DNA from: a virus
Length of the DNA: 58,999 nt
UHGV virus genome: UHGV-0092096
Reading direction: 5' to 3' (one strand)
Shown here: in pieces, positions 10,604 through 55,021 of the stretch
How the letters are laid out: each line of letters opens with the position of its first letter
How positions within the stretch are numbered: the stretch's first letter is position 1
Program-made: the position numbers and the translations under genes
The notes under the pieces: generated by a model
What the model was told of the DNA's origin: nothing
The model's input: the letters and a program-made list of their open reading frames with translations, nothing else
Databases searched by the model: none

Positions 10604-10604
10604 A

Positions 10605-12694: not shown

Positions 12695-12708
12695 AGTTGT
12701 TTATCCTC

Positions 12709-16287: not shown

Positions 16288-16312
16288 ATTTATCGGAAAG
16301 GAGGTGTTACAA

Positions 16313-16708: not shown

Positions 16709-16876
16709 CCCCACTCTTCTAAAAAAAGTTTAACGAATGTGTGCAGGTACTCTATTGTGCCTGCGCTTTCTATTTTAACGATCATTTCTATTAGTTGCAA
16801 TCTCAGTCTCTCTTTCTCATCCATAAAAATCACCCCTGACCCATCTATAAGAGAACCGAATAACGATTATTAAGAA

Positions 16877-17080: not shown

Positions 17081-17281
17081 GTGTTTGCCCTCCGTTTTTA
17101 AAATTTGTTTTTATTATAGCGGAAACGGGGGAAAAAGTACTTACTAAAATTTTTATAATTATGCATTAAATTTTTTATTCGCATCCGTGAAAAATAGACG
17201 TAAAATATTATGTCTTTATTTTTTTGGATTGGACACACAATTTTTTGGTTGCGAAATGGCAAAAAGGAGGTAAAATTTTTT

Positions 17282-17902
17282 ATGTCATCTGAGATTGAAA
17301 GAGCACAGAATTTTGGCAACATGCTTGCAAAATCAAGAACAGATGCCGGAAAAACAAGAAAGCAAATGGCTCAAGCTCTCGGAAAGTCAGTCACTACAAT
17401 TCAGAACTGGGAATCCGGAATAGGTGAGCCTGGTTACAGAACACTTGAGAAATGGTTTTCGGTGCTAGGATTAAACATGGAAAAGTACATTCTCAGCTAC
17501 CGATACCCGGACAAATTCTTAACTATTGAAAAAGATACAGAAATCGAAAAGATGGTTGACTGTATTCATGCTTACATAAACGCAAACTACACTGAGCGAG
17601 ATATTCGTCAAATGGCTTACTGTATGTTCGGAGATACTGGTTCCTCATGGCACGAGCAATTAAATATGCTGACAGCTAACAATCACTGCTCTATGCGGTC
17701 GAGAGTGAATATCTGTCAAGCTGTTTACGACAACTTCCTTATGGAAAAGGCAAGAGGTGAGCTTGCCAATGAAGATAATATAATGCCTGACCTTGCTTCT
17801 TTGAATATTGCTTTGCAAAGAGGTCGTGAAGCCGCATGCGAAAGTAAGAACGGTTACACAATGACTGGTCAAACAAGAAAGAATAACAATAAAAAGAAAT
17901 AA
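17282..17902 (+). CDS. HTH (XRE-type) DNA-binding protein with C-terminal domain of unknown function; second lysogeny-strand regulator
   Basis: HTH segment RKQMAQALGKSVTTIQNWESG. RBS AAAAAGGAGGT. No S24 peptidase motif. Confidence 0.5.
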   Translation: MSSEIERAQNFGNMLAKSRTDAGKTRKQMAQALGKSVTTIQNWESGIGEPGYRTLEKWFSVLGLNMEKYILSYRYPDKFLTIEKDTEIEKMVDCIHAYINANYTERDIRQMAYCMFGDTGSSWHEQLNMLTANNHCSMRSRVNICQAVYDNFLMEKARGELANEDNIMPDLASLNIALQRGREAACESKNGYTMTGQTRKNNNKKK

Positions 17903-17955: not shown

Positions 17956-19026
17956 TTACTCAATCCAAGCCTGGAACTTGTCAATGAATCTGTATTTGTC
18001 TCCGGCATATCCGTCCATGCCACTTGCTTTCAGTGTATCGACCTGATCTGCGTAGAAGTTCTTGTTGTTCTGTACAGAAACTCTGTAGTGAACCATCTTG
18101 TACTTGTATCCTTCCGGTGTAATGTAGTACAGCTCAACTGCAAGAATCTCTGAACCATCTCCGAGGATTCCATTCTTCTTATCATTCAGATCATAGCTAT
18201 TACCGAATGTGAGGTATGGCAACCAACCATTCTTTCTTGTGTATACTCGGCAGCGGATACTTCCCTTGCTTACCTTGATAGCAAGCCATTTGATTGAGAC
18301 ATTATCACCTTTTCCAGCCCAGTCAATTTTATTAACTACTGGCGGCCACCATCTGTCTGTGAAAGCCTGATATGTGATATCGACCTGTCCTAAGTCTTTC
18401 TTCTCTGCTGGTTTAGACGGTGTTGCCGGTGCAACACTTCCACCAAGCTCCATGTAGCAATGGTTGACGTCTACTCTTCCACTGACTCCATCTACCTGTC
18501 CATCAGAAGCATACTGCCAAATAGCATACTGACCTTTGTATGTATCTTCCGGAAGATTCTTGTATCTTGCCATCCACTCAACATATTTTCCGCGAACACT
18601 GCCAAGATAGTTGTTGAACCAGCTTAAGGATGCGTAGATTCCCGGAGTATATCCAGCTGCTTTAAGTCCTTCGCAGACAATCTCACAGCATTTAGGTGCG
18701 TATCCCTGTGTGCCTGGTTCCTCAACATCAATGAAGATAGGTAACTGGAAGGTATGACCTTTAATCAGTCTTAAAATGTGAGCAAGCTCGCTCTGTGCCT
18801 GTCTGTCACAAGTTGCGTAGCTGTACAGATAGACTCCTACCGGGATTCCAAGTCTTTCGCACTCTGCAAGGTTGCGGATCCACTGTTTATCATCCTGTGA
18901 TGCGATATCGTCTCCGTAACCACATCTAAGAATAGCTCCGGCACAACCTGACGCCTTGACTCTTTCCCAGTTGATAACTCCATTATGATAAGATACGTCA
19001 ATAATCAGATTACTCATACCATCCAC
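17956..19026 (-). CDS. Endolysin: GH25 muramidase with C-terminal cell-wall-binding region
   Basis: N-terminal IIDVSYHNGVINWERVKASGCAGAILRCGYG matches the GH25 signature. Confidence 0.8.
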   Translation of the reverse strand: MDGMSNLIIDVSYHNGVINWERVKASGCAGAILRCGYGDDIASQDDKQWIRNLAECERLGIPVGVYLYSYATCDRQAQSELAHILRLIKGHTFQLPIFIDVEEPGTQGYAPKCCEIVCEGLKAAGYTPGIYASLSWFNNYLGSVRGKYVEWMARYKNLPEDTYKGQYAIWQYASDGQVDGVSGRVDVNHCYMELGGSVAPATPSKPAEKKDLGQVDITYQAFTDRWWPPVVNKIDWAGKGDNVSIKWLAIKVSKGSIRCRVYTRKNGWLPYLTFGNSYDLNDKKNGILGDGSEILAVELYYITPEGYKYKMVHYRVSVQNNKNFYADQVDTLKASGMDGYAGDKYRFIDKFQAWIE

Positions 19027-33963: not shown

Positions 33964-35052
33964 TTACGCTACTTTCATAACAACAACGCTGTTCATTCCC
34001 TCAAATGATGGAAGACCAATCATGGATACTACGCAATGAGTATTGATTGGATGCTCTGTTGCATATGTGTAGACAGAAATACCAGTTTCAACAAGTTGCA
34101 GATTTCCTCCGGCGAGATCTCCGCTTCTCTCTTCCGGTGTTCTTCCGAATACGTAGTCTCCAAGATATACTCCTGCTGACTGACAAGAGATAATGTTTGT
34201 TGGGATGAAGTACTGTGTTGTTCCAGCTTCATCAACATACATCTTGTCGTATACCTCGATTTCGATTCCGTACTCTCTCAGATAAGAAAGAACATCTGCC
34301 TGTCTTACTCTGATACCGCCGTTGTAAGCAGTAATTCCGAGTACCTGTTTCTTTGTGTCTTCTGCTTTCAGAATCATCTCAAATGTCTCTGTATTCATAG
34401 AGAATCTTGTCAGGGAATATCCTGTCTTCTTTGCGAAATCACGTCTTGTGTCAATCAAGTCTTGAAGTGGTGTTGCTGTTGCCGGAACATTCCACTTATC
34501 AGATGTTCCTTGAATTTCAACGAAGTGATCTGCCTTGTGCTTTGCTCCATTGTCTGTTGTGTAATCAATTGTGTATGTCTTGTCTTTGATTTTAACAGTA
34601 ACTTTCGGAACACCGTCTGACGGAGCAAGTAACTGCCAAATCTGTCTCTCAGGAACTACCATCGCTCCTTGAATCAGATTCATAGGTTTCTTGCTAATCT
34701 GTCTGAGTACTTGATTTGCAAGATTTGAGTTTTCAGCAGACTGATAGTTCGCATACTGCTGCTCCTCTTTTTCTGTAACCATGTAGGACTCTCTGTAGAA
34801 CGGCATTTCGTTCTGGATATCCTGGAATCCACCGACATCTCTTAATTCTGCCTGTGCATCAAAGTTGGATGCTTTCAGAGAAATTGGCTGAGAATTTTCA
34901 CCAAGGATATATCTCATTTCCAGTGAATCCTGTTTTGTTGTTCCAAATTTCTGTCTCCCAAGATACGGTGGAAGTGCAAGAGACGCTTTGTAGTTATCCC
35001 ACATAACTCCAAGACTTCTCGCTGTAAATGCTTGACTTAATGGTAATGCCAT
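33964..35052 (-). CDS. Major capsid protein
   Basis: A 362-aa protein downstream of the scaffold and portal; size and position are typical. Confidence 0.6.
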   Translation of the reverse strand: MALPLSQAFTARSLGVMWDNYKASLALPPYLGRQKFGTTKQDSLEMRYILGENSQPISLKASNFDAQAELRDVGGFQDIQNEMPFYRESYMVTEKEEQQYANYQSAENSNLANQVLRQISKKPMNLIQGAMVVPERQIWQLLAPSDGVPKVTVKIKDKTYTIDYTTDNGAKHKADHFVEIQGTSDKWNVPATATPLQDLIDTRRDFAKKTGYSLTRFSMNTETFEMILKAEDTKKQVLGITAYNGGIRVRQADVLSYLREYGIEIEVYDKMYVDEAGTTQYFIPTNIISCQSAGVYLGDYVFGRTPEERSGDLAGGNLQLVETGISVYTYATEHPINTHCVVSMIGLPSFEGMNSVVVMKVA

Positions 35053-35071
35053 GTCTGTTATTCCTCCTTAA

Positions 35072-35416
35072 TTAACCTTCTGCAATCTTTGGTGCTCCGT
35101 AAAAAGTAACTCTCGGAGTCGCTTTTCTTGCTGCATCTGCAATTGAAAGGCCTGTTACTTTTTCCCAATCAATCGTTCCCTGATATACATATGTTCCAGG
35201 TGCATCTCCCTGTGTAACATCAACGTCCTCAAGAAGATATCCAAGGCATTCAGCATCATTGGACGGATACGGCGTTCCAGCTTTTACAATTTTCATTCCG
35301 TTGTCATCTGCCGCAGATACCATTGACTGCTGTACTACACAAGCAGCTCCCTCATACGGGAAGAACTTCAGAATCCCTTTACCTTGTGTAAAATCTCTTA
35401 CAATTGGTTTACCCAT
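35072..35416 (-). CDS. Putative head decoration / minor head protein
   Basis: Sits between the scaffold and capsid genes. Confidence 0.4.
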   Translation of the reverse strand: MGKPIVRDFTQGKGILKFFPYEGAACVVQQSMVSAADDNGMKIVKAGTPYPSNDAECLGYLLEDVDVTQGDAPGTYVYQGTIDWEKVTGLSIADAARKATPRVTFYGAPKIAEG

Positions 35417-35430
35417 TGCTTAATTCCTCC

Positions 35431-36021
35431 TTATTTCAAAACGTAGTAGTCTTTTACAGACTGCTCACTCTGTTTGTTGCCGAAAACAATAGATTCTGCA
35501 TTTTTCACATCTTCCGGCTTATCATCTTGTTTTCCACCGCCAGTATTTCCACTGCCCGGATTAATTGAACCGTTAGCGATTTCCTGTTCTTTCGCCTGCG
35601 CGGCGGCTGTTTCTTTATCGGCGATAATCTGTGACATGGAATCAATGGCTGTCTTTGCAAGATCGTAATTGTCTTGAAAACCAGCAAGAACATTCTCTGC
35701 CTGTTCACCCGTCAGTCCTTTTTCAGCAGCATAAGCACGAATATCTTTCTTGATGTTCTCTTTCTGCAATGCATCAATCTGTTTTCTCAGCTTCTCAATC
35801 TCGTCATCGTTCTGTGGTGACGGATTTTGGTTTGGCTGTGGATTTGGAACTGGTGCCGGTGTAGGCTGTGGCTGAGGTTCCGGCTTTGGTGCTGGATTTT
35901 GGTTCGGTGCCGGAGCTGGTCTGTTATTATGAAACTGATTCAAATAATTAGTTACCTGTGCATCTGTCGGCTCTTCAATTCCTAACGCAACCAAATTTTG
36001 TTTTGCTTCTTCTCTTGTCAT
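35431..36021 (-). CDS. Scaffolding protein
   Basis: Proline-rich linker (PAPAPNQNPAPKPEPQPQPTPAPVP) plus coiled coil, between the portal and capsid genes. Confidence 0.55.
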   Translation of the reverse strand: MTREEAKQNLVALGIEEPTDAQVTNYLNQFHNNRPAPAPNQNPAPKPEPQPQPTPAPVPNPQPNQNPSPQNDDEIEKLRKQIDALQKENIKKDIRAYAAEKGLTGEQAENVLAGFQDNYDLAKTAIDSMSQIIADKETAAAQAKEQEIANGSINPGSGNTGGGKQDDKPEDVKNAESIVFGNKQSEQSVKDYYVLK

Positions 36022-36157
36022 AGTTATTACCTCCGTGATCTACATTTGATTTCGCTGTTCTATCAGCATGGATTTTTTCTTTTTCCATTTGACGCATGGA
36101 TGCAAATTTATATAGAAAAAGCCAACCACTGATTTCTCAATGACTGGCTTATTTCTA

Positions 36158-36400
36158 CTATCCTAATTTCTGCCAACTCTTTGTCTCAGAGTTGAATTTG
36201 TATAATTCCGATGTGTCTAACATCAAACAGGAACTTCCTGCATCTACATAAGTCGGGAGCTTATCAACATCTTTTGACTGAGCTTCATAGCTTCTAACAT
36301 TTCCCGATGCTTCGGTACAAACAATGCTCCCCATATCCGGCACATCTGTTCCCGGAGGATACGTCTGTCCGTCTTGTTTTACTGTGTAGTTGTATTTCAT
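36158..36400 (-). CDS. Hypothetical small protein
   Basis: ORF in chain. Confidence 0.4.
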   Translation of the reverse strand: MKYNYTVKQDGQTYPPGTDVPDMGSIVCTEASGNVRSYEAQSKDVDKLPTYVDAGSSCLMLDTSELYKFNSETKSWQKLG

Positions 36401-37866
36401 TTTGTTACCTCCGGCGTTTTGTTGCCATTCAAATTCTGATTGTTTCCTAGTTTTTGATTCTGATTAGAATTATCATCTATCTGATTTTGCTTATTTTCAT
36501 CATCAGAAGTCTTGTAAAGCACATCCAGATAAGGCTTGGACAGAATGTAAGCTTTTTCACTATCCGGGAATAATGTGCTAAGCTCATATGCAAGTTTCGG
36601 ATGAGTGCCGTCTTTCAACAGGTAGTCCAGAAACTGTGCCTTTACTAGCATATTATCCATAGGGCTGTGATTAATAATCACTTCAAACTGGCTCGTATCA
36701 ATAGGACATTCATTTTTCCCTTTTCTTACACGAATAATATTCAAGATAACTTCATTCAGTCTTTGTTCTGACTCTTGAATAATCGGGTCTTTCAGTTTTC
36801 CTCTCGTCTTAGCCATATCCCATCCGTTGCGGAGTTGTACCGCCCCTTGAGTGTCACCACCTGTGTTTCCTTCAAGTTTAGGAATGGCAAGAATCTGTAG
36901 GATATTATCCAGCAAGTCTTGTTTTGCAACCTGTGACTGAGTTTGATTTAGCTCCTGTGTCATAATATCAACATCAGCCTTATTGTCAGTACCATTGTTT
37001 GATTTAACAACAAGAGCACCTTCCATTTTCATCTGTTGGAATGTCTCATGGTCAACTGTACAGTTTACAAATTTTACCCAAGCACTAACAAACTGTTCAA
37101 TGCTGTCCATTCTGTTTGACTGCATATTGTTAATTGCATCAAACATGGATGCTACAAGCTCAATATCAGAAATTCTCTCAAAATTGTTTGGGTATTCAAC
37201 AATAGGGATTCCACCAAACGCATGTACACCCCATTGTTCAACTTTTCCGTCTTTGATAATGCATTGGTTCGTTTTCGTGTGGCATGACTTATACCATTCA
37301 CCGTTCAAGTCCTTTAATTCTTGAACGGAAACAAGCGGTTCTTCCGTAATAGATGAATAAATGATGTAAGTATTCATGGGAGTTGGAACTGTAATTCTGA
37401 ACGGCATTTTTTCTCCAGGTTTTTCAAACTGAGCAGCTAAAAAAGCTGTTCCAGTTGCCGACTGCCACTCACCAGCTCTGATATTTCTAGCATGTTTATG
37501 AGCACGTCTAAAATAATTATTGAGCACGTCAACATATTCGCTGATATTTTCCTTTACAATACTCACGCACTGCAACGGTTCTCCATATGACTGTCCAACT
37601 TTAAACTGAACTGCTTCATAAGCGTGATTCTCTACTACTTTGTTTACCACATCATCTCTGATCGTCTTTGTACGGTACAGAATCGGTTGATCTCCTTTGT
37701 AGTAGTCCCACAAATATTTAGTAACTTGTTTGTTAAAGTAAAAGATTCCAAGTGTTTCTCCTACAACTTCCAAAATATTGCTTTGATCAACCTCTTCGAC
37801 ATTCGCATATGCAATTTTTCTTCCGTATTTGCCTTTTACAAGGTCTTGTAGAGTATTCTTGTTCAT
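36397..37866 (-). CDS. Portal protein
   Basis: A 489-aa protein immediately downstream of the terminase region; SPP1-like arrangement. Confidence 0.6.
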   Translation of the reverse strand: MNKNTLQDLVKGKYGRKIAYANVEEVDQSNILEVVGETLGIFYFNKQVTKYLWDYYKGDQPILYRTKTIRDDVVNKVVENHAYEAVQFKVGQSYGEPLQCVSIVKENISEYVDVLNNYFRRAHKHARNIRAGEWQSATGTAFLAAQFEKPGEKMPFRITVPTPMNTYIIYSSITEEPLVSVQELKDLNGEWYKSCHTKTNQCIIKDGKVEQWGVHAFGGIPIVEYPNNFERISDIELVASMFDAINNMQSNRMDSIEQFVSAWVKFVNCTVDHETFQQMKMEGALVVKSNNGTDNKADVDIMTQELNQTQSQVAKQDLLDNILQILAIPKLEGNTGGDTQGAVQLRNGWDMAKTRGKLKDPIIQESEQRLNEVILNIIRVRKGKNECPIDTSQFEVIINHSPMDNMLVKAQFLDYLLKDGTHPKLAYELSTLFPDSEKAYILSKPYLDVLYKTSDDENKQNQIDDNSNQNQKLGNNQNLNGNKTPEVTK

Positions 37867-37875
37867 TTCTTCACC

Positions 37876-38073
37876 TTAAATCAAAAAAGTCATTCCGCTA
37901 CTGCAATTTCTAATTGGCAGTGACTTCCTGACTGTTTCTCCCGTTGCTACTTTGAAAATAATCTTTTTGTTACACTTCTTGCATCGACATACTTTGTCGA
38001 TTTTTCCTTTTCCGTCATAAGTGCCAACTTTCCTGTTGCACTTCGGACAATAAATTGTTTGTTCTTTTACCAT
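37876..38073 (-). CDS. Small zinc-ribbon protein
   Basis: CPKCN...CRCKKCN motifs. Start placed at the MVKEQ ATG. Upstream in-frame codons lie inside the terminator hairpin of leader copy 3. Confidence 0.4.
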   Translation of the reverse strand: MVKEQTIYCPKCNRKVGTYDGKGKIDKVCRCKKCNKKIIFKVATGETVRKSLPIRNCSSGMTFLI

Positions 38074-38086
38074 GTTTTTCACCAAT

Positions 38087-38195
38087 AAAAAATGCACCTG
38101 GTTCGTCATTCCAAGTGCATCTTTGAGAAAGGATTATGAGAATTTTTATGTATCCTCAAGTTGTATTTCTTCGATTATTATTATAACACGTCAAG
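38087..38195 (-). promoter_or_regulatory. Promoter-leader-terminator cassette copy 3: TGTGTTATAAT promoter, ~85-nt leader, hairpin TGCACTTGG/CCAGGTGCA plus U6
   Basis: Same extended -10 box as copies 1 and 2, a GAATG start motif, and a GGTGAAAAACATGG RBS context. See findings. Confidence 0.5.
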
Positions 38196-38248
38196 TATTT
38201 GGAAAAGTAGTGAAAGAATGTGCAATTATGTGCACTTTTGTGAAATGA

Positions 38249-38671
38249 TTACAGATAGTAAGAGCCGAAAAGCTTCTCAAACTCTTGTAGTGCTCTTCCA
38301 TGGATTGACATCGCACCTCTAAACGAGCATTCCATTTCCGAAGTGATCGTTTTCCAGTTTTTGCACAAGACATATCTGTTGTACAGTACTCTGTACTGAT
38401 TTGTGTTTGTAATCATCTCAATCTGTTGAGTGATTTCCCTCTTTTTTTGAAAAGAATGCTCAATAGATTCCGCAAGCTCTACTTCTGCATCAGCAATTTT
38501 AGAGACAAGGCTTCCCATTTTGTCAGGTTCTCCGCTGCTCTGAACATTAACCTCTTTTAGAGACACAGAAATAGAACAAGCCATATCTCTCAACTGATTA
38601 ATTTCTTCAACTTTGTTTTTGATTATAAAATCTAACTTTGAAATCTGTCCTAAATATGTTTTTGTATCCAT
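38249..38671 (-). CDS. ArpU/RinA-type (sigma region-4-like) late transcription regulator
   Basis: C-terminal TITSEMECSFRGAMSIHGRALQEF resembles a sigma-70 region 4 HTH. Confidence 0.45.
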   Translation of the reverse strand: MDTKTYLGQISKLDFIIKNKVEEINQLRDMACSISVSLKEVNVQSSGEPDKMGSLVSKIADAEVELAESIEHSFQKKREITQQIEMITNTNQYRVLYNRYVLCKNWKTITSEMECSFRGAMSIHGRALQEFEKLFGSYYL

Positions 38672-40416
38672 TATCTGTATCCCCCTCTAAACGGATTGTG
38701 TACCGCTTCGACTCTTGGTGGTTCCCATGTTCCCTCAATAAAATATGCAAGCGACGCAAGGCAGTCAGGAGAGTCTTCGTGCTTGTTTTTCCCCTTAATG
38801 GTAAAAGAGTACAGATTCCTCATAAAGTTCCTATATTCTTGATTTCTGAACCCAGTATCGCGAAAATAGAACTCACGTATAGAACCAGCTTTGTCCCAAA
38901 TTCTCTGGCTTTTTCTCATTGATGTAGGTGCATATTGAGAGACAAGAGTTACCTTATGTCCTTTTTCTCTCAGCATTTCGTCTACTTCGTCTTTGTATCC
39001 TTCTCCACCTTGGTTTGACTCAAAATACACACTTCCTATATTGTGATCAATAATCATATTCACAACTTTTGGCTTTGTGATTTTCTTTTCTGAATTATCA
39101 AAAATGACATCATCAATGTATATGGACCCGTCTTCGTACATGTAAGCCACAGCAAATGCCAAGTAGTCTTCACCTCCGAGAGCCACATCACATGCAGCGC
39201 AAATTCTATATGGTTCTTGAGCTGGGAGCACTCCATTGTAGAATCTCATGTGTTCTTGATTGAATACAGCTCCGTCCCTTTCAATAGGTTCCTGCTGGCA
39301 CTGTGCATACCATCCGGCCATATCATCGTTTTCTTCAAATTTTGCACGTTTGATCCTATAGAATTTTGTTGAAAATCCAACTCCATAGTCATAATCAAAG
39401 TTACTTTCATCTGTAACTGGATCAAGTGCTGGAATCTTCAAAATATCATACCTGATATCTTTTGCCTCTGGATTGTTCTCTAAGAAATCCAATCTGTCCA
39501 TGTAGATATCTTTCAGACTCCAAATTGTACCGTTATAGATTATTTTGCATTTCTCTTTCTTACGTGTCATTACGTTGTTGTCAAAGATAGTCTGCTTTCT
39601 TTTGAGAACATCTGGGTTTAAAACATCCTGAATACCCTCGATAATGTCATCAACAATTAGCCATCCATACGCATCGTATTCGCCGTTAAGTCCGGATGTA
39701 AGTCCTTTTCCGGAAAGAGATTTATATTTTTTCTTTCTTCCTAAATCAACCTTATTGTTTTTTAAGTCAGTATCTTTGATAATTCCTTTTGGGAACACCT
39801 CTTTAAAGCAATAAGTCGGGTCAGTCCATATTTCCATAACTCCATCAAGGAACGCGCTTCCAAGGCCCTCTTTGTATGTTACGTACAAATTGCTTGCTTC
39901 CATATCTCTAGCGCATTTCCATGAAGTCGCGAGCGTAAGTTCTTGGCTTTTACCAACACGGGCCGGCATATGAACAAACAGTTCATCCAATAAATCGTCT
40001 TCAAGCATCTGAATCTTGTCAGTTACCAATTTCAGTGTTTTTCTTCTCGGCTCGTAGAATCTGTCTCTTCGTTTTCTGTTTTTTTCCACATACAGCATAT
40101 AGCTGTCAAGAATTTCCTGTGCTTCTATTTTCAAAATCTTATAATACTGATTAATCAAATCAAACTCTGTCTTATTCTGCTGTGCATAATCTTCAAGCCA
40201 CGCAAAATCTCCACCGTTTGTCTGTTTTTTTATGATTTGATTGACAATCTGCTTTGCTCTATCAGAAACTTGCAATCCGTACTTTATGTCTTTCTCTTGC
40301 TCAAATGCAGTCTGAACCGCAAGGATGTACGCATCAAGCACCTGTTCGTCAATACCTTTACGCTCTATGTAATTTTCATACCCTTTTACGGTTTTAATCA
40401 AATAATCGCTCGCCAT
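38671..40416 (-). CDS. Terminase large subunit
   Basis: Walker A-like HMPARVGKSQ ATPase block and a C-terminal nuclease region with acidic residues (DSPDCLASLAY). Confidence 0.85.
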   Translation of the reverse strand: MASDYLIKTVKGYENYIERKGIDEQVLDAYILAVQTAFEQEKDIKYGLQVSDRAKQIVNQIIKKQTNGGDFAWLEDYAQQNKTEFDLINQYYKILKIEAQEILDSYMLYVEKNRKRRDRFYEPRRKTLKLVTDKIQMLEDDLLDELFVHMPARVGKSQELTLATSWKCARDMEASNLYVTYKEGLGSAFLDGVMEIWTDPTYCFKEVFPKGIIKDTDLKNNKVDLGRKKKYKSLSGKGLTSGLNGEYDAYGWLIVDDIIEGIQDVLNPDVLKRKQTIFDNNVMTRKKEKCKIIYNGTIWSLKDIYMDRLDFLENNPEAKDIRYDILKIPALDPVTDESNFDYDYGVGFSTKFYRIKRAKFEENDDMAGWYAQCQQEPIERDGAVFNQEHMRFYNGVLPAQEPYRICAACDVALGGEDYLAFAVAYMYEDGSIYIDDVIFDNSEKKITKPKVVNMIIDHNIGSVYFESNQGGEGYKDEVDEMLREKGHKVTLVSQYAPTSMRKSQRIWDKAGSIREFYFRDTGFRNQEYRNFMRNLYSFTIKGKNKHEDSPDCLASLAYFIEGTWEPPRVEAVHNPFRGGYR

Positions 40417-41403: not shown

Positions 41404-41475
41404 CAAGCGTAACTGGAATCGAACCAGTACATCAGGAGTCAAAGTCCTGTGCTCTACCATTAAGCTATTACGCCC
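41404..41475 (-). tRNA. tRNA-Gln (anticodon UUG) with atypical acceptor/D-arm junction
   Basis: Minus strand shows D-arm GCTTAATGGTAGAGC, anticodon stem CAGGA/TCCTG with loop CUUUGAC, and a T-arm ACTGG-TTCGATT-CCAGT. The acceptor pairing needs G-U pairs or one extra nucleotide. Confidence 0.5.
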
Positions 41476-41479
41476 TTAG

Positions 41480-42205
41480 CTGCAAGAAATTTACCTCGAA
41501 AGCCGTAAGGAATTCTTGCACTGCTACGGTTCTTTATAATATTGGAGTTTATTATATGATCGATAAACCACGTCTTTTATTAACAAAACGTTAGTTTCCG
41601 AGTTTCAGCGAACTCCGCAGCTAAAACACTGATTGAATTTTAATTCAAACATGATTAGGGTTTCCCCTTATTCAATCATGGTAAAAGTCATATTCTGCCA
41701 CTGTGATGATAGGTCTGAGCTTCTGAGAGCGACTCTTGGCTTCCTACCACTGTCTAAGCACACATAGGATTGATACCCATAAATTTCACGGTTCTTTCAG
41801 AAGAATATGTTTTGCATCAATGGATTTCATTTCCACTGCAATATCTTATCAAAACTTGCCATACCGCTACTTTAACGAATTTCTTGTGTTATACCCTGAT
41901 TTCTCAGGCTCAAGGCAAATCAGCTTATTGAGAATTTCCATCTCTGTTGGTGGTCTCTCACACCACGAACTAAATGGATTATTTCTGCACCGCAGACGTC
42001 TATTAATCACTGACCACAAGGATTCTGCATTTGACTTCTCTATGATGATACACTGCAAGGCATTGTTGACGGTTTCCGTCTTCACCAATGGAATCACTCC
42101 TAGTGGAAAGAATCAGCTTATCCAATATCTCGAACAAGCCTATCTCGTTACCATTGCATCTCGGCATGACTGAAAAATCACTCTTCACCGAGATAATCAT
42201 GTTTG
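41480..42205. ncRNA. About 720 bp of hairpin-rich non-coding sequence between tRNAs; candidate large structured ncRNA (ROOL/GOLLD class?)
   Basis: No credible ORF in any frame. Many local hairpins (e.g. GTGGTctctcacACCAC). Bounded by tRNA genes inside a prophage. Confidence 0.3.
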
Positions 42206-42207
42206 AA

Positions 42208-42287
42208 TTTCCGTATAAGGAGTCGAACCTCAATCTTTCGTCCGGGTAGGGTAAGAACGAACGCTTTACCAATTAAGCTATACGGCT
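42208..42287 (-). tRNA. Aberrant tRNA-like gene (80 nt): canonical D- and T-arms but a 15-nt anticodon loop and two acceptor mismatches; possible pseudo-tRNA
   Basis: D-arm TAGCTTAATTGGTAAAGC and T-arm TGAGG-TTCGACT-CCTTA are present. The anticodon stem TTCGT/ACGAA encloses TCTTACCCTACCCGG. Confidence 0.35.
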
Positions 42288-42350
42288 TCCAGCTACACTG
42301 TAGCAAGGAAAGTAAGTTATGAAAAAGTTTTTTCTCCGAAACTCGGAGAG

Positions 42351-42424
42351 AGCTACCGTTCGGATTCGAACCGAAAACCTGTTGATTCGTAATCAACTGC
42401 TCTATCCATTTGAGCTATGATAGC
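42351..42424 (-). tRNA. tRNA-Arg (anticodon ACG)
   Basis: Acceptor GCTATCA/CGGTAGC (6 of 7 bp), D-arm GCTC-AAATGGATA-GAGC, anticodon arm GTTGA-TTACGAA-TCAAC, T-arm TTCGG-TTCGAAT-CCGAA. Confidence 0.7.
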
Positions 42425-46046: not shown

Positions 46047-46727
46047 TCAATCGTTTTCCTCGATCTGTGGCGTTAGATCCTGTCCGAGCTGTGGCAATTG
46101 GTCAGCGGTCAGTGGTCTTGTCTCCACTTTCTCTCGGCTAACTCCTGGAAGGTTCCACATATGATGCCTGTTAAGCGATGGCAGCACCTTCATGGGATTA
46201 ATGCGTTTATCTTGCAGCATTGACTCAAGAGACTGCTCGTTATCATCCATTATTCTTTTGGCAAGGTCTGTACGTTTTCGACTAAGTATAATACTATCGC
46301 TCCCACTATTATGGTGTTTAATATTATATTTACTGTCTCTGTTCCAGTCGTATAGAGTCTGTTTAGTAATGCCTGTCATGTCCAGGAATCCTTTGATATT
46401 GACAACCTGGCAATGCCTGTTGCAGATTCTCTTGTAGATGTCATAAGCATCCATTACTTTCTCGTCGTTGTATTCTGTCCCAATCTTTCCATCAATCCAG
46501 AGCAGATTGCCGTTCTTCTCGAACAGTGTCACTCTGATCTCCTCGATTATGTCATTCCAGATCTGTGGTGGAATATCTGATTCGTCAAGATCATCTCTAA
46601 TGCAGTAATCAGTGATCACGTCATCGACTAAGGCTCTGAGGTTGACCGGATCAACTTCAACACTTTCAACACTGTTCACTGTCTCAGCTTCTACTCTCTC
46701 TGTTTTCTGTGTTCTTCTCTTAGCCAT
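46047..46727 (-). CDS. HTH DNA-binding protein; candidate terminase small subunit
   Basis: Internal HTH (MTGITKQTLYDWNRD). First gene after leader copy 1. Separated from terL by the tRNA/moron island. Confidence 0.35.
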   Translation of the reverse strand: MAKRRTQKTERVEAETVNSVESVEVDPVNLRALVDDVITDYCIRDDLDESDIPPQIWNDIIEEIRVTLFEKNGNLLWIDGKIGTEYNDEKVMDAYDIYKRICNRHCQVVNIKGFLDMTGITKQTLYDWNRDSKYNIKHHNSGSDSIILSRKRTDLAKRIMDDNEQSLESMLQDKRINPMKVLPSLNRHHMWNLPGVSREKVETRPLTADQLPQLGQDLTPQIEEND

Positions 46728-46910
46728 TGTTTTTCACCTCCGCATTATCAAATAATCTATAAACAAAAAAGCCTAGACACACCGAGATATTAAACAGCTC
46801 ATTGTCTGTTATTTTCTCGATATGCCTAGGCTGACGATTCCTAGCTCTTTTCGATCCAGCTCCCATTCGGCTTTCACGGATTTCTTGTCGCTGATGCTAT
46901 TATAACACAA
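46720..46910 (-). promoter_or_regulatory. Promoter-leader-terminator-uORF cassette copy 1 (upstream of terS-like gene)
   Basis: TTGCAA-17-TGTGTTATAAT promoter (-10 at 46899-46904). ~130-nt leader. Hairpin AGCCTAG(46770-76)/CTAGGCT(46826-32) plus U6. A 48-aa uORF from ATG 46866 reads through the hairpin and its TAA overlaps the terS ATG. Confidence 0.55.
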
Positions 46911-46962
46911 CGAAAATCTGTTTGCAATAGTGTCGAGTAAATTAATTTTAAATTTTTATCAA

Positions 46963-47015
46963 GGCGTGTGCGTCCGTGTATGTGCGTGCTCGTCTGTGCG
47001 CTGGCGTGTCCGTGT
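46963..47015. repeat. GC-rich alternating purine-pyrimidine GTGCGT/CGTGT tract; Z-DNA-prone
   Basis: ggcgtgtgcgtccgtgtatgtgcgtgctcgtctgtgcgctggcgtgtccgtg sits within an AT-rich 830-bp intergenic region. Confidence 0.7.
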
Positions 47016-47249
47016 TTTGATAATCAGGACGATCAATGCCCTGTTCTGTTGGCTGTGGTTGTCTCTTCCGGCCGTTGTTCGTTTCTTGTCTGATCGATTT
47101 GTTTTTACATCGATTTTGGGGAGGTACACAGTCGGTGTTTTCTCAAAACCCGACCTTTTTAAAACTATAGACTGAACGTAGTGAAGGATATAGTTTTGAA
47201 AAGTAATATATATAATATTATAAATTATTTAGTAAGTCGATTATTAGGG

Positions 47250-47281
47250 CTGTATCCATTCTGTATCCAATCTGTATACAA
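47250..47281. repeat. Three direct repeats CTGTATCCA / CTGTATCCA / CTGTATACA (11-12 bp period); candidate protein-binding iterons
   Basis: tgtatccatt ctgtatccaa tctgtataca. Confidence 0.6.
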
Positions 47282-47436
47282 ATAGCATAATAATTTGCAC
47301 AGCGTAACATTTGTGAAATCACTGTTTGCCCTTGCGTTTACTGGCTTTATTGACATTTGTTAAATATTTATCGTAACAATTTGTTAACACTTTTGTAACC
47401 CTACTTGCCCTGTTAGTTTGAACTAACAACTATTTT

Positions 47437-47477
47437 TAAAAAAATAGAGCAGGAATGACCATTTCTTGCTCTTTTTG
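47437..47477. terminator. Bidirectional intrinsic terminator (AGAGCAGG...CTTGCTCT with A7 and T5 tracts). It is preceded by palindrome GTTAGTT-tg-AACTAAC (47412-47427)
   Basis: Hairpin flanked by AAAAAAA upstream and TTTTT downstream. Confidence 0.45.
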
Positions 47478-47564
47478 CTGTGATGTGTTATGATTTTCTT
47501 TACTGGAGAGCGGTGGCAAGTTCCGCCCTCTCTTGTGTGTCTGAGTCGCTTTGTGCGGCTCTTT

Positions 47565-48137: not shown

Positions 48138-48166
48138 TTGACAGTAACTTTTAAAAGTGATATATT
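48138..48166 (+). promoter_or_regulatory. Sigma-A promoter (TTGACA-17-TGaTATATT) driving the plus-strand two-gene cassette
   Basis: ttgacagtaacttttaaaagtgatatatt. Confidence 0.5.
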
Positions 48167-48213
48167 ATAACCATAGCAAAGAACAAAACAAACACTCAAG
48201 GGAGGATACAAAA

Positions 48214-48729
48214 ATGACAAATAGAGATTTATCACAGGCAATCAGAAAAGATTTAAAAGGACACGGATTTACAAGTAAGGATGTATCTGTAAGAGTCCGC
48301 GATGCGCTCTATGATACATCAGTTAATATCACTATCAAGAATCCCCTTGTCAGAGAATCAGACATTGAGAATATTGTGAAGAAATATAGCAAAATTGACT
48401 ATGACCAAAGATCAATGGAGATTTTAGCCGGATGTAACATATACGTTCATTGTGAATATGCTTACGGGATTTTTGATGATGTAGCAGCTCCACTTATTCC
48501 AATAGCTGAAAAAGTGTTTAACAATGAAAAATACGATGGTAAGAAGATCGCAGAAAATGAAAAAATTGAAATTCACATGATTAAGTTCAGCAACGTGGAA
48601 AGCCGTTTGTATGAATTTGATAAGAGTAAGAGACAGCAAAACACAATTGGCGGCTACATCGTGAGAAGTCCGAAAAGCTTAGCAATCGCAATGTGGAGAT
48701 TTAAGAATTTAAAAACAATATATGCTTAA
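48214..48729 (+). CDS. Hypothetical protein (172 aa), first gene of the plus-strand cassette
   Basis: RBS GGGAGGATACAAAAATG. No recognisable domain. Translationally linked to the downstream ATPase. Confidence 0.5.
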   Translation: MTNRDLSQAIRKDLKGHGFTSKDVSVRVRDALYDTSVNITIKNPLVRESDIENIVKKYSKIDYDQRSMEILAGCNIYVHCEYAYGIFDDVAAPLIPIAEKVFNNEKYDGKKIAENEKIEIHMIKFSNVESRLYEFDKSKRQQNTIGGYIVRSPKSLAIAMWRFKNLKTIYA

Positions 48730-48757
48730 ACGAAAGATTTATAGGGAGGTTGGCACC

Positions 48758-49519
48758 ATGAAAGCACAGAGAAATTGGATCACACCAGAGGGAAAGAGTT
48801 TTATCGATTATGAAAACATGATGGCGCAGCCACACTTGTTAGTGGCTGGAGCTACTGGATCAGGAAAATCGGTTGTAATTAATGGAATTATCACAACAGC
48901 ACTATTCGAAGCACCGTCGCAAGTACAGTTCATTCTTATCGACCCGAAAAGGGTTGAACTCGTAGACTATAGATATCTTCCGCATACGGCGTTCTATGCA
49001 TCCGAACCGGCTGAGATGGTCAGAGGATTACATATGGCTATGAATATCATTGAAATGAGATACAAGCAGATGCAGAGCGCACACGTAAAGAAATACCAGG
49101 GGGCGCAGTTATATGTGATCATTGACGAATTAGCGGACTTAATGACCACGAACAAAAAACAGGTAATGCCACTTATCCAACGTATAGCACAAATAGGACG
49201 TGCCGCCGGTGTTCATCTGATCTGTGCGACTCAGTGCCCACTTGCCAAGGTAATCCCAACAGAAATCAAGGTCAACTTTGATGCCCGTGTGGGACTGCGT
49301 ACGAGGTCAGCACAGGACAGCAGAAATATATTAGGCTTTAACGGTTGCGAGGATTTACCGCGCTATGGACAGGCATATTATATGAATCCTGATAGTGGAG
49401 TAAAAAAAATAGTTGTTCCGATGTATGACAATGGCGAAACATGGCGTTTGATTAATCACTGGATGCAGCAGCGCCCACCGAAAAAGAAAGGATTCTTTGA
49501 AAGATTGTTTGGAATGTAA
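48758..49519 (+). CDS. Soluble FtsK/SpoIIIE-family DNA translocase ATPase domain protein
   Basis: Walker A LLVAGATGSGKSV, FILIDPKRVEL, Walker B LYVIIDELADLM, and the IAQIGRAAGVHLICATQCP motif. No TM or gamma domain. RBS AGGGAGGTTGG. Confidence 0.8.
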   Translation: MKAQRNWITPEGKSFIDYENMMAQPHLLVAGATGSGKSVVINGIITTALFEAPSQVQFILIDPKRVELVDYRYLPHTAFYASEPAEMVRGLHMAMNIIEMRYKQMQSAHVKKYQGAQLYVIIDELADLMTTNKKQVMPLIQRIAQIGRAAGVHLICATQCPLAKVIPTEIKVNFDARVGLRTRSAQDSRNILGFNGCEDLPRYGQAYYMNPDSGVKKIVVPMYDNGETWRLINHWMQQRPPKKKGFFERLFGM

Positions 49520-49913: not shown

Positions 49914-50648
49914 TCAAACTCCGAATTCTTTGTTATTCTTTTTCTTCCACTCTTCCCGTTCTGCTTCTTTCTTCTTCTCTTCTTCGGTCATTTCAGAGCC
50001 GTTTCGCATTCTTTTAAAATGGTTCACGATGTCTTCTTTTTTTGACTCTTGTATATTCTTCCAGTAATTTTGACGGCGTTCTTCTTCTTCGGAAATTTTG
50101 GTAGCGTCTTCTGCTCTCTTCTTTGCAAGTTCTTCGTTTAATTCCTCAAGTGATTGAATTCCCTTTTCTTGTGGTTTGTTTTCCTGTTCCGGTTCTTCCA
50201 GCAGTTCCGGGTGCTTAACGTATTCTTTCGCTTTTGCAAAAATATCCACGCTGTAAGTGTTTATCAAGTCTTTCTGTATAACAATATCATTGATTTGTTC
50301 ACCGTATTTGCGAGCTAGAAATTTAGCCGATTTCTCTTTCTTCTTTTCCTCTTCCGACTCAGACAGAGGATCAACAAATCCCTCTTCCCATGGCATCACT
50401 TCAACTGCTGCCATCTGGTCGACCTCTTTCGTCTCTTTTTCGGTCGAAGCGCTCTCTGTAGGCTCTAAAATCGGGGCTGTTGGCGTTTCAAATGATTTAA
50501 GCATAGTTTCTACTGCTTCAACGATAAAAGCGTTTATAGTGTAGTCTAGGCTCTGTATTCGCTCTTTCGTTCCTTTCGGTAATCTAGCTTGCACAATATC
50601 AAACTTTGAGTTATAACGGTTTTGTGCGTCTTTCTGGTATTTTTTCAA
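49914..50648 (-). CDS. Ribbon-helix-helix (Arc/CopG/ParG-like) DNA-binding protein with long acidic/coiled-coil C-terminal region
   Basis: N-terminal FDIVQARLPKGTKERIQSLDYTINAFIVEAVETML has the beta-strand plus two-helix RHH pattern. The iteron array lies immediately upstream. Confidence 0.5.
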   Translation of the reverse strand: MKKYQKDAQNRYNSKFDIVQARLPKGTKERIQSLDYTINAFIVEAVETMLKSFETPTAPILEPTESASTEKETKEVDQMAAVEVMPWEEGFVDPLSESEEEKKKEKSAKFLARKYGEQINDIVIQKDLINTYSVDIFAKAKEYVKHPELLEEPEQENKPQEKGIQSLEELNEELAKKRAEDATKISEEEERRQNYWKNIQESKKEDIVNHFKRMRNGSEMTEEEKKKEAEREEWKKKNNKEFGV

Positions 50649-51140: not shown

Positions 51141-51392
51141 TTATTTGCAGAAATTGTTCAGCAATTCTTCTTTTAACTCCATCTTCCCGGCTCTAAAACC
51201 GAGCTTGAAAGCGTAAATCAGTGCTTTTGTCTTCCCCATCTCCACTTTGTCGGCAATCGCAATCAATGGGAACAGGTCTTCCGCAAAGTAATCTGTAACC
51301 ACACTGTCGCTGATCGGGCGAATTTTCTCTTCAATATTATTCAGCGTGCTTCTCATATCGCTGACTTTTAATTTAATCTTCCTTACTACCAT
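51141..51392 (-). CDS. Hypothetical protein
   Basis: ORF in chain. Confidence 0.4.
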   Translation of the reverse strand: MVVRKIKLKVSDMRSTLNNIEEKIRPISDSVVTDYFAEDLFPLIAIADKVEMGKTKALIYAFKLGFRAGKMELKEELLNNFCK

Positions 51393-52065
51393 TCTTTTTC
51401 TCCTCTCTATGTTCTACCTTTAATTCGTAAAGGCCGTCAATCACGGTTTTTGCACGTTCAGCCATGTCAGGGAAGAAGTCAAATAAATCTAATTTGCTTT
51501 CAAGTCTCTTTCCTGTCCCCATAATATATCTGATTTCTGCTTCCTCAAGGTCGAATTTTTCTTCAATGTAAGGAAATATAAGCTCAAACAAAAATTTTTC
51601 TTCTACACCGTAGCTGCTACAAATAGCTGCTATTTTATATCTGTTTTTTCTGTAGAACGTCACTGGTTTAGGTGCCGGGATGCTAGATACCTTCGGTCTC
51701 TGCGGAATTTCTGCCACTTCTCTCACTCTGAAATAGGTATTCACAAGTCTTCTCTGAACATTCCACGACAATTCATCTTTGAATGTCTTAACAATCATCA
51801 GATAACCGCTTTCAGTCAAATAAGTGACTCCCTTTGGTGGGATTTCTCCAATGTGGTTATTAGCCACATTGAAATCTTCTCTTGTGATAACGAAATAATC
51901 TTCATTTTCCAAGAAGTGAGATTTGTTCTTATAGAAGTTATTTCTAGCAGTTCCAGACTTTCTCTGGTGAACTTCATCAATGTCCTTGAAAGTAACTACT
52001 CTCTGTCCTTTGTATTCTCTGATCGGTAATGCTATTTCACTTACTGCTAAATTTTCTTTTGCCAT
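51373..52065 (-). CDS. ORF6N-domain phage protein (antirepressor-related)
   Basis: RVVTFKDIDEVHQRKSGTARNNFYKNK...FLENEDYF...ESGYLMIV matches the ORF6N/KilA-N-type domain. Start at MAKEN with a GGAGG RBS. Confidence 0.5.
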   Translation of the reverse strand: MAKENLAVSEIALPIREYKGQRVVTFKDIDEVHQRKSGTARNNFYKNKSHFLENEDYFVITREDFNVANNHIGEIPPKGVTYLTESGYLMIVKTFKDELSWNVQRRLVNTYFRVREVAEIPQRPKVSSIPAPKPVTFYRKNRYKIAAICSSYGVEEKFLFELIFPYIEEKFDLEEAEIRYIMGTGKRLESKLDLFDFFPDMAERAKTVIDGLYELKVEHREEKKNGSKED

Positions 52066-52086
52066 CTTCTTAACCTCCATAGCAAA

Positions 52087-53580: not shown

Positions 53581-54288
53581 TTATGCAGCCATATCAAACA
53601 AACCTAAGATAAACTTTCTTCCAAGCTGGGTTATTCTTCTGTAATAAATCACACGACCGCTATCAAGGGTTTCTTGCTTTATAGACTCATATCCAAGATC
53701 GCTATAATCGGAATACATAACCCATGTTCCATTTGACTTATACTGAATCTTCTTTTCAGCCAGAATCTTATTCAGTTCGTTTGCACTTTTCAGACCGATC
53801 TCTTTCGCAATTTCTGTCATGGTATATGTTTTGTTGACATGCATAAGGATAGCGTTTGTCTTTTCCGCTTCAATTCTTGCTGCTCTTTCTTCTTTCAGTT
53901 TGGTCAGAAGCTCAATACCGAAGTCCGGGTTGTTCAAGATATTATCAATAACGTTATCTGTTGCGTAGATTCCGTTCTTTCGGATGCATGGGAGGACTTC
54001 ATCCGTGACCCAGTGTTTGAAATTTTCAGCTGACTTCAATTTACTACCAAAAATCAGTGTGTAAACACCTGACTCATTGATTACTGTCACGTCTCTTTTC
54101 TGACCTGCACTGTCAATTTGGCAGACCAGCTTATCGCTATCCATTACGTGTTTCTTCAATGCTCCATATGTATCTGCGTACCCTAAAGCAACAGCTACGT
54201 CCTTTCCAACAATCCATGGCTTTCCATTTATTACAACTGTTCTGATTTCTCCGAATTCCTCATTTTTAAATACGCTTAATTCATTCAT
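53581..54288 (-). CDS. Phage antirepressor (Bro-N plus KilA-C/ANT domains)
   Basis: N-terminal FGEIRTVVINGKPWIVGKDVAVALGY (Bro-N). C-terminal ANELNKILAEKKIQYKSNGTWVMYSDYS (KilAC). Confidence 0.7.
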   Translation of the reverse strand: MNELSVFKNEEFGEIRTVVINGKPWIVGKDVAVALGYADTYGALKKHVMDSDKLVCQIDSAGQKRDVTVINESGVYTLIFGSKLKSAENFKHWVTDEVLPCIRKNGIYATDNVIDNILNNPDFGIELLTKLKEERAARIEAEKTNAILMHVNKTYTMTEIAKEIGLKSANELNKILAEKKIQYKSNGTWVMYSDYSDLGYESIKQETLDSGRVIYYRRITQLGRKFILGLFDMAA

Positions 54289-54690
54289 TTTTTCTTCTCC
54301 TTTTCATAAAAACGTTGGTTTTTCCAAAAGGATGTGCTATTATAATTTAGTAAGCATCCTTTTAGATTGGTTGTTTTAAGAGTTGTTCGCTTTGGTAGGT
54401 TAGCAACTCTTATTTTTTTGTCAGAAATAGCAGAGCCTAACTCAATAGACTCTGCTACGTTTAATTCGTAACCAGCCGCATCACTGGTCGGTATTCCGTT
54501 TTTCGTATCCAGCACCATCACTGGAGTATATGAGAGAAATAAAAAAGCCTGAGTACGCTGAAAGCAAAGACAGTATTTTTTACTATCCTTGTTCTCAGTA
54601 TACTCAGGCTGACGATTCCTGACCCTTGTTGATCTGAATCCCATTCGTTCTTCACATATTTCTCGTCGCTGATATTATTATAACACAAAT
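54285..54690 (-). promoter_or_regulatory. Promoter-leader-terminator-uORF cassette copy 2 (upstream of antirepressor gene)
   Basis: TGTGTTATAAT (-10 at 54677-54682). ~134-nt leader. Hairpin AGCCTGAGTA(54546-55)/TACTCAGGCT(54601-10) plus U6. The uORF (track ORF 54285..54644, MGFRSTRVRNRQPEY...) crosses the hairpin and its TGA overlaps the antirepressor ATG. Confidence 0.55.
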
Positions 54691-54694
54691 GGAA

Positions 54695-55021
54695 TTAATA
54701 AACAATACGAGCAAGCAAAATATTTTCAATCAAATCAGTCAATGAAATAATTTCTCTCGCATGGTCTGAGATGAAATTGCAGAGTCGTTCCTCTGTTTCT
54801 ATAGGAAGAGAAATTCCGTAGGTCATGCAAACAGCGTGAGTCAGCTCATGGGAAAGAACGCGGTCAAACATGGTATCTGAGAGACAGTTAGACAGATAGA
54901 TTGTATTGGTCATTCTGTCAGTAACTCCTAGCGTGTAAACACCGTCTGACCGTCTCAGTAGCTCGCTGGATGGATTTTCATATTGTACATGCCATAATTC
55001 ATCATTGATATAGAAATTCAT
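54695..55021 (-). CDS. ImmA/IrrE-family metallopeptidase domain protein
   Basis: HEXXH motif (LSHELTHAV) in a ~108-aa protein, typical of the ImmA-like domain. Confidence 0.5.
   Translation of the reverse strand: MNFYINDELWHVQYENPSSELLRRSDGVYTLGVTDRMTNTIYLSNCLSDTMFDRVLSHELTHAVCMTYGISLPIETEERLCNFISDHAREIISLTDLIENILLARIVY

Follow-up and report, generated by a model that had tools for sequence, protein, structure and literature searches.

The 119-codon open frame (54285..54644, minus strand) directly upstream of a phage antirepressor gene raises the question of whether it encodes a protein, acts as a translated leader or is non-coding. It lies in the virus genome UHGV-0092096, studied here as one window, i.e. 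the whole stretch of 58,999 nucleotides (nt) that was analysed. An earlier note, made from the sequence alone, described the frame as a leader upstream open reading frame (uORF) within the second copy of a cassette. The layout proposed there was borne out, with every feature present once the minus strand was specified. The frame lies across a non-coding control region and is not a protein gene. Judging from sequence comparison, the region is probably the non-coding 5′ control region of the antirepressor gene, the core of which would be one of two conditional-termination cassettes, each carrying a small hairpin that competes with the terminator. The frame itself would then be, in our estimate with similar confidence, a by-product of juxtaposed non-coding modules.

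The 119-codon frame and its coding potential

Along the minus strand, the stop codon of an M78-peptidase-like gene is followed by a promoter, the ATG of the frame, a terminator hairpin, five further hairpins, a ribosome-binding site and the antirepressor start (Table 1). The ATG, at 54644, is located within the conserved GAATGGGA, 26 nt past the predicted transcription start (~ 54670), which is close to the 25 nt given in the earlier note. As also foreseen there, the frame spans a terminator hairpin at 54546-54610, made of a stem and then six T residues, and its TGA overlaps the antirepressor ATG in the window, forming ATGA. The two further hairpins mentioned in the note (AGCAGAG...CTCTGCT and AAGAGTTG...CAACTCTT) are real, and we found three more beyond them.

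Comparison of nucleotide- and codon-level conservation gave no coding signal. In an alignment of ten collinear relatives, variable sites were distributed over codon positions 1/2/3 as 13/19/14 in the frame, compared with 7/3/20 in the adjacent M78-peptidase-like gene. Read from the same ATG, the copy-2 frame has 39, 48, 88, 93, 119 or 173/186 codons among related gut phages. The 48-codon version carries an insertion of ~ 41 nt directly after the T-run, the 88- or 93-codon versions have 1-nt indels in the loop of the AAGAGTTG...CAACTCTT hairpin, and the 39-codon version has a new TAA. In two relatives (L171 and L172), the site following GACAAAAAAATAAGAG (window positions 54407-54422) harbours an inserted Cys-rich gene, complete with flanks and a ribosome-binding site of its own. 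Gene callers fuse this gene to the leader frame, giving products of 173 and 186 amino acids (aa). As the inserted gene splits the leader in these relatives, the frame in the window is a join of two non-coding modules that are separate elsewhere. The Cys-rich gene (MNKCDDCKFC..., ~ 100-110 codons; 2220-2530 in L171 and 4740-5045 in L172) is bounded by the short repeat AAAATAAGAG.

Among 5.8 billion proteins searched, only 12 clusters of homologues (P0001-P0012) were found, all of them close DNA relatives, with lengths from 77 to 186 aa and with varying start, frame, end and fusion partner. The 119-aa product had no match in Pfam or PHROG. A real protein of 119 aa could be argued from the length of the frame, as an open frame this long turns up in only 1.5e-4 of dinucleotide-shuffled versions of the region, and from its prediction by gene callers in public assemblies (P0001-P0012). 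Nevertheless, the predicted versions disagree with each other, relatives show frame-breaking indels, the ~ 41-nt insertion and new stop codons, third-position bias and a family match are absent, and the frame contains a complete intrinsic terminator. We consider such a protein highly improbable, in good agreement with the earlier note, which had regarded the frame as probably not an independent protein gene. Public assemblies call it a hypothetical protein (e.g. DAQ30364.1, "MAG TPA: hypothetical protein"); it would be better annotated as a regulatory leader.

Table 1. Positions of the cassette, leader and genome features discussed in the text.
Feature	Position	Strand	Remarks
119-codon open frame	54285..54644	minus	spans the non-coding leader; not a conserved protein gene
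Copy 2 promoter	54677..54705	minus	-35 TTGTTT 54700-54705, 17-nt spacer, extended -10 TGtTATAAT 54677-54685 (-10 hexamer 54682-54677)
Copy 2 leader	54611..54673	minus	conserved, weakly structured: ATCAGCGAC...GTGAA...CGAATGGGA...GATC...AGGAATCGTCAG
Proposed antiterminator hairpin, copy 2	54604..54622	minus	UCAGG (54618-54622)-AAUCGUCAG-CCUGA (54604-54608)
Copy 2 intrinsic terminator	54540..54610	minus	18-bp lower stem plus upper stem (54546-54610), T6 54540-54545
Twin hairpins (T/A)CCAGTGATGnnGCTGG(A/T)	54508-54525 and 54471-54488	minus	
Hairpin AGCAGAG...CTCTGCT	54428..54457	minus	closes the cassette-2 module; followed by the junction GACAAAAAAATAAGAG (54407-54422)
Hairpin AAGAGTTG...CAACTCTT	54378-54411, plus-strand T7 to 54419		no sense-strand T-run; terminator-like on the plus strand
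11-bp inverted repeat around TTATAAT	54324..54365		just upstream of the antirepressor ribosome-binding site
Antirepressor ribosome-binding site AAAGGAGAAG	54289-54303	minus	strong
Bro-N + KilAC antirepressor gene	53581-54288	minus	
Copy 1 promoter	46899..46927	minus	TTGCAA-17-TGtTATAAT
Copy 1 leader	46833-46895	minus	
Proposed antiterminator hairpin, copy 1	46826-46844	minus	CUAGG (46840-46844)-AAUCGUCAG-CCUAG
Copy 1 terminator	46770-46832, T-run 46764-46769	minus	
Copy 1 open frame	46720..46866	minus	48 codons from the shared ATG
226-aa gene	46047..46727	minus	first gene after copy 1
Serine recombinase	76-1458		
Replication genes	9345-13521		
HTH_3 repressor-like genes	16259-17902	plus	
GH25 lysin	17956-19026		
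Capsid, portal, terminase large subunit	33964-40416		
Three tRNAs and ROOL RNA	41405-42424 (ROOL 41637-42216, 375.7 bits)	minus	between the 226-aa gene block and the terminase large subunit

Two cassettes and a proposed competing hairpin

The other copy of the cassette, announced in the earlier note, was located at 46764-46927 (copy 1), and the window contains no others. Just one long direct repeat is present, between 54592-54729 and 46814-46951, with 70% identity over 138 nt ungapped and ~ 75% in a gapped alignment. Conserved between the two copies are the TTG of the -35 element, TTGTGTTATAAT, a transcribed leader of ~ 63 nt, the outermost bases of the hairpin, and the T-run; the promoter spacer and the hairpin interior differ. 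An identical 15-mer, AGGAATCGTCAGCCT, has exactly two occurrences in the window, one per cassette. The copy 2 promoter overlaps the stop codon of the M78-peptidase-like gene (54695-55021; Pfam).

The cassettes fold with -43.5 kcal/mol (z = -3.95) for copy 1 and -48.4 kcal/mol (z = -7.1; 140 nt) for copy 2. Taken by itself, the leader is no more stable than its shuffled versions (z = +1.4 and -0.35), and a helix in its first 50 nt was rejected, as the linked changes (TCC to TCT with ATCG to ATCA) form none. In both copies, a stable hairpin is directly followed by a T-run, as in an intrinsic terminator. Its lower stem comprises 18 pairs; in our alignment of 18 distinct cassette sequences, 96.9% of the cells were paired (22-53% in slid controls), and six of the 18 pairs showed compensatory changes. 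Consensus scans detected no sigma-70-like site between either terminator and its gene, and in copy 1 only ~ 40 nt separate the T-run from the ATG of the 226-aa gene. Because the promoter precedes the terminator and no promoter-like site was detected after it, both genes depend on read-through as the sequence stands.

At least ten related viral contigs contain both copies together, and all true matches to the cassette in public data came from human-gut assemblies. Three DNA patterns in IMG/VR, one pattern each for a metagenome collection and a set of species-representative genomes, and a leader profile searched with nhmmer yielded no third cassette type, all other hits being chance matches. Neither cassette had a GenBank phage match (blastn, distant mode), and the species-representative genomes contained no prophage copy. 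An Rfam scan of the whole window at the gathering threshold gave nothing at either cassette or in the antirepressor leader; the best hits there (E = 0.35-4.5) were to unrelated microRNA models. We must also note that on the plus strand (54651-54678 and the copy-1 equivalent) the conserved leader contains a promoter-like sequence, TTCACA-16-TATTAT, extended by a TG upstream. This site faces away from the cassette, would give an RNA antisense to the end of the M78 gene, and could explain part of the leader conservation.

At the junction of leader and terminator, the covariation between the copies defines a 19-nt hairpin with a 5-bp stem and the invariant loop AAUCGUCAG, the 3′ arm of which is also the start of the terminator's 5′ arm. 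Its stem cells were paired in 98.9% of cases, compared with 1-70% in slid controls, which showed no both-side changes. Between copy 1 and copy 2, both partners have changed in two of the five pairs (C-G to U-A and U-A to C-G), and one relative shows a G-U; the 3′ arm of the terminator has changed in step with these two positions. Covariation thus links three segments, i.e. the one upstream and the two arms of the terminator, as predicted for a terminator/antiterminator pair. In the nascent copy 1 transcript, the small hairpin is predicted with pair probabilities of 0.85-0.98.

In the mechanism we propose, a strong and probably constitutive sigma-A-type promoter would drive each cassette, and transcription would by default halt ~ 125-130 nt after its start, leaving a short leader RNA. 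Read-through of the terminator would be needed to switch on what lies downstream, namely the antirepressor gene in the case of copy 2 and, in that of copy 1, the 226-aa gene together with its following operon. A trans-acting factor, most likely a phage protein, would bind and stabilise the small hairpin with the AAUCGUCAG loop; the stabilised hairpin would prevent pairing in the lowest part of the terminator stem, adjacent to the U-run, and RNA polymerase would read on. With a common leader at both sites, the antirepressor and the 226-aa operon could answer to one signal, and the remaining ~ 250 nt of the antirepressor leader would represent further non-coding modules. Sequence comparison shows the anatomy of the cassette and its duplication, the position of the promoter ahead of the terminator, the covariation of the terminator and of the small hairpin, the missing coding signal and the mosaic of modules in relatives; we infer that the promoters fire, that termination is efficient and its read-through regulated, that the small hairpin is the switch, and that the factor exists.

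Several observations weigh against this proposal. The small hairpin is weak, with -3.7 and -4.3 kcal/mol, and would for this reason need a stabilising factor. The minimum-energy fold of the nascent copy 2 transcript lacks it, with GAUUC pairing to GAAUC instead. The covariation comes from two lineages only (copy 1 versus copy 2), so that each compensatory pair is one event, and the invariance of the 15-mer among relatives is partly a matter of ascertainment, as the searches required AGGAATCGTCAGCCT. Conditional termination also leaves unaccounted for ~ 50 nt of conserved, unstructured leader and the rarity of so long an open frame (1.5e-4 of shuffles). Among the open reading frames (ORFs) scanned, we found no Q, N, CAT/PRD, ANTAR or NusG-like match in Pfam, PHROG and NCBIfam. 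A 79-aa HTH_26 protein encoded in the upstream neighbourhood is unlikely to be the leader-specific factor, being 75% identical in a phage with a different leader type (L224).

The earlier note proposed that the frame, as a leader uORF, serves coupling or regulation. In the corresponding mechanism, ribosomes from the shared ATG would pass over the 5′ arm of the terminator and so keep its hairpin from forming, unwind the downstream hairpins and hand over at ATGA, the peptide being functionless. Part of this stood: the ATG has the same place in both cassette copies, and in all variants seen of either copy the frame stays open across its entire terminator. The copy-1 frame is not short, having 48 codons; it also crosses its own terminator, and its TAA lies 8 nt into the 226-aa gene. 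Both window frames end on the start of the next gene, as ATGA in copy 2 and ATGGCTAA in copy 1. Moreover, a 118-codon open frame occurs in just 1.5e-4 of shuffles, the L171/L172 frame continues in phase into the inserted gene, and the even spread of substitutions over codon positions is expected of a peptide-independent uORF. Other observations speak against translation. The Shine-Dalgarno pairing of the shared ATG is on the weak side, with -5.6/-5.7 kcal/mol (-5.7 for the 119-codon frame), between the medians of -10.4 for the 54 window genes and -3.1 for random sites. Some copy-1 cassettes that are otherwise intact have ACG or ATA in place of the start codon (L018/L179; L027/L185/L328). Measured from the downstream start, the copy-1 frame stops at -32, -29, -20, -6 or +8 nt, or it is fused in frame, and in most relatives the copy-2 frame stops 70-250 nt short of the antirepressor start. 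With the stop position so variable in relatives, the ATGA and ATGGCTAA overlaps are particular to this genome, and coupling is not a conserved property. A further point against the uORF is that ribosome-mediated attenuation depends on transcription and translation being tightly coupled, and such coupling is reported to be missing in Bacillus subtilis; the host here, however, makes strong use of Shine-Dalgarno pairing. The uORF-coupling idea for the 119-codon frame is weakly supported at best, and ribosome-mediated prevention of termination is, in our opinion, a weaker model than factor-dependent antitermination and quite improbable.

Two other explanations were considered. In one of them, the cassettes would be two paralogous small RNA genes (~ 125-130 nt) acting in trans, with read-through incidental or the two roles coexisting (cf. 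StxS of Shiga-toxin phages). This agrees with a promoter and a terminator having nothing coding between them, and with a conserved single-stranded 5′ region next to a terminator that drifts and covaries, as is usual for base-pairing small RNAs; a short terminated late-promoter RNA with a trans function has a precedent (PMC7547250). Nevertheless, the invariant 15-mer has no complementary target in the phage at up to three mismatches, and both cassettes directly precede genes without another recognisable promoter. In addition, the promoter-leader-terminator arrangement is tied to one gene family in many phages, which points to cis control. We give the small-RNA explanation a rather small chance, while noting that it is compatible with conditional termination. 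The other explanation is processive antitermination of the lambda Q/N type, where the leader, as DNA or RNA, would load a factor, and the small hairpin would be boxB-like and not competing. The layout is that of PR′-tR′ before late genes, the leader is conserved in sequence and not in structure, the 5-bp stem is as in boxB, and the 226-aa protein and its homologues have basic N-termini. Neither a Q- nor an N-family protein was found among the scanned ORFs (Pfam/PHROG), though, and the two initial transcribed regions have no -10-like pause element in common. The three-way covariation with the terminator arm is also not needed by a processive mechanism, which we regard as unlikely. Conditional termination with a competing hairpin thus remains our preferred explanation.

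The 226-aa gene family and comparison with known systems

Copy 1 precedes, on the same strand, the 226-aa gene, the tRNA/ROOL block, and the genes of the terminase large subunit, portal and capsid; a promoter and then a terminator thus stand ahead of the late operon, as in lambda Q-type late antitermination. The 226-aa protein remained nameless in Pfam, PHROGs, NCBIfam, a PDB sequence profile search, a Foldseek comparison of its AlphaFold model (predicted local distance difference test, pLDDT, 67) with the PDB, and a profile search of 5.8 billion proteins. Its assignment as a small terminase was not adopted, as every identity search was nameless. The family has more than 2,000 metagenome members and no Pfam domain.

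We analysed 45 non-identical regions from IMG/VR that lie upstream of 226-aa homologues, the protein identity of which goes down to 32%. A hairpin with a T-run stands directly before the ribosome-binding site in 41 of these regions, against a background of ~ 1.5 such terminators per kb. The units consist of a strong promoter, a leader of 80-200 nt, and then the hairpin with its T-run. The leaders differ by phage group, meaning that the architecture is common and the sequence is not. In the other phage groups, no second leader copy was found, each contig having one, and the antirepressor-side duplication is peculiar to the lineage of the window. An uncultivated human-gut phage group thus carries a promoter-leader-terminator unit before the same gene family, and one lineage has copied the unit before an antirepressor gene, which would tie anti-immunity to the same signal. 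The 19-nt hairpin is a concrete, testable RNA element. That it is the site of a new phage-encoded RNA-binding antiterminator, with the 226-aa protein as one candidate, is a tentative idea that we think has a limited chance of being correct. If it held for the 226-aa protein, the cassettes would form a late switch that reinforces itself and at the same time activates an antirepressor, and the group-specific leaders before the 226-aa family would be cognate RNA-protein pairs.

One other leader type is widespread, occurring in several gut-phage groups (loci L254-L278, L192-L207, L222 and L229). It is ~ 135 nt long, lies between a strong promoter and the gene, and contains the invariant boxes GCCG.G.GA, GAGCAAG..CGGCAA and ACACGCTCACAG...TGTGGGC(G)TTTTT; RNAalifold pairs its GCCG(U) with (A)CGGC. 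This type is absent from Rfam and is a candidate for a new phage leader RNA family. Homology of the window leader to the motif of the other groups (GCCGTGaGA...GAGCAAGGACGGCAA...ACACGCTCACAG) was suggested by a similarity seen by eye and was rejected, as the best nhmmer hit had E = 4.6 and lay elsewhere in the window.

Two observations concern the surroundings of the unit. Upstream of cassette 1, ~ 600 nt (46952-47560) contain no convincing gene, but a CA-rich run, CACGCACATACACGGACGCACACGCC, and a bidirectional terminator-like hairpin at ~ 47446-47472; in other phage groups, CACGCA-rich runs are likewise found ahead of the promoter. The N-terminal ~ 50 residues of a 244-aa protein (49914-50648, minus strand) recur in many phage groups as small proteins 0.2-2 kb upstream of the unit (L195, L208, L212, L216, L229, L239 and L246). 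Their motif ...RLPKGTKE... resembles ribbon-helix-helix by eye, with no Pfam match, and the protein is a possible regulator.

The BglG/SacY/LicT antiterminators act on RAT hairpins, which share several nucleotides with the 5′ arm of a terminator, and the bound protein prevents termination. The bgl operon carries the gene of its own antiterminator, as the first one past the terminator. Our cassette is alike in that its proposed upstream hairpin overlaps the terminator 5′ arm, and the 226-aa gene is a possible parallel to the bgl antiterminator gene. However, the cassette hairpin has 19 nt and a RAT ~ 29 nt, and by eye the loop differs from what we take to be the RAT consensus. The scanned ORFs gave no CAT_RBD or CAT/PRD match, and the site had no Rfam match (Rfam was not checked for a RAT model).

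Late-gene antitermination is a textbook feature of lambdoid coliphages, and to our knowledge few cases have been described in phages of Gram-positive gut bacteria. In such phages, the known route is through the promoter activators RinA, ArpU and Alt (PMC3753634). The lambdoid late promoter PR′ is always active and, in lysogeny, its transcription is terminated immediately downstream, which yields a short RNA (PMC7547250). Like the PR′-6S RNA/StxS-tR′ units read through by Q, the cassette combines a constitutive-looking promoter with a strong terminator within ~ 130 nt, before genes that are to stay off. In contrast to the lambdoid phages, no Q-family protein was found in this phage among the ORFs scanned, and no recognisable Q-binding or sigma-dependent pause element; its cassette is duplicated and would also control the antirepressor, its leader hairpin overlaps the terminator arm, and its host looks Gram-positive-like (strong GGAGG ribosome-binding sites, GH25 lysin). 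The cassette is a member of neither the lambdoid PR′-tR′ nor the RAT antiterminator family.

Among phage antirepressor genes, RNA control is exerted by the sar RNA of P22 and the c4 RNA of P1/P7 (PMC12197685). The likeness to the present locus is that an antirepressor would be silenced by RNA-level devices of its leader, here with a possible antisense RNA in the leader. P22 sar covers the ant ribosome-binding site, whereas the putative RNA here does not, and the main device would be a terminator and not translational repression. As in the trp and pyrBI attenuators, an open frame begins in the leader and crosses the terminator 5′ arm; unlike these attenuators, the cassette has a weak Shine-Dalgarno sequence, a start codon lost in some relatives, no regulatory codons and a variable stop.

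The distal leader and genome context

The 256 nt after the terminator are predicted to fold into five hairpins (z = -5.6, given for a 266-nt stretch). The twin hairpins contain two copies of CCAGTGATGnnGCTGG, compared with 0.22 expected by chance, and differ in the fifth base pair (U-A versus A-U); L172 has one of them. Together with the AGCAGAG...CTCTGCT hairpin, they travel with cassette 2 in L171/L172. The AAGAGTTG hairpin and the 11-bp inverted repeat travel with the antirepressor gene and are constant while the 5′ end of this gene varies. The inverted repeat could be either an RNA hairpin or an operator. It overlaps a plus-strand promoter-like TTGGTT-17-TGcTATTAT (54315-54343), which is below the scan threshold. 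A 75-nt stretch with the hairpin and the T7 run folds with z = -4.6, and an antisense RNA of ~ 70 nt from the plus strand (~ 54350-54419) is possible from these signals; it would end ~ 60 nt upstream of the antirepressor ribosome-binding site. One relative (L028) has lost the greater part of its antirepressor gene.

As a whole, the window has the appearance of a complete genome of a temperate, siphovirus-like phage of the human gut. The place that holds ROOL with three flanking tRNAs here is occupied in related loci by ROOL, tRNAs, RAGATH-18, a type II hammerhead and an int-alpA RNA. Three antirepressor-like proteins are encoded, AntA + KilAC (14731-15480), ORF6N (51373-52080) and Bro-N + KilAC (53581-54288), and the cassette stands only before the last. 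Amid the minus-strand array, the plus strand at 48157-49519 encodes a 190-aa protein of unknown function and an FtsK/SpoIIIE-like ATPase; this pair has a strong promoter, TTGACA-17-TATATT, at 48138-48166, and looks like an inserted accessory module.

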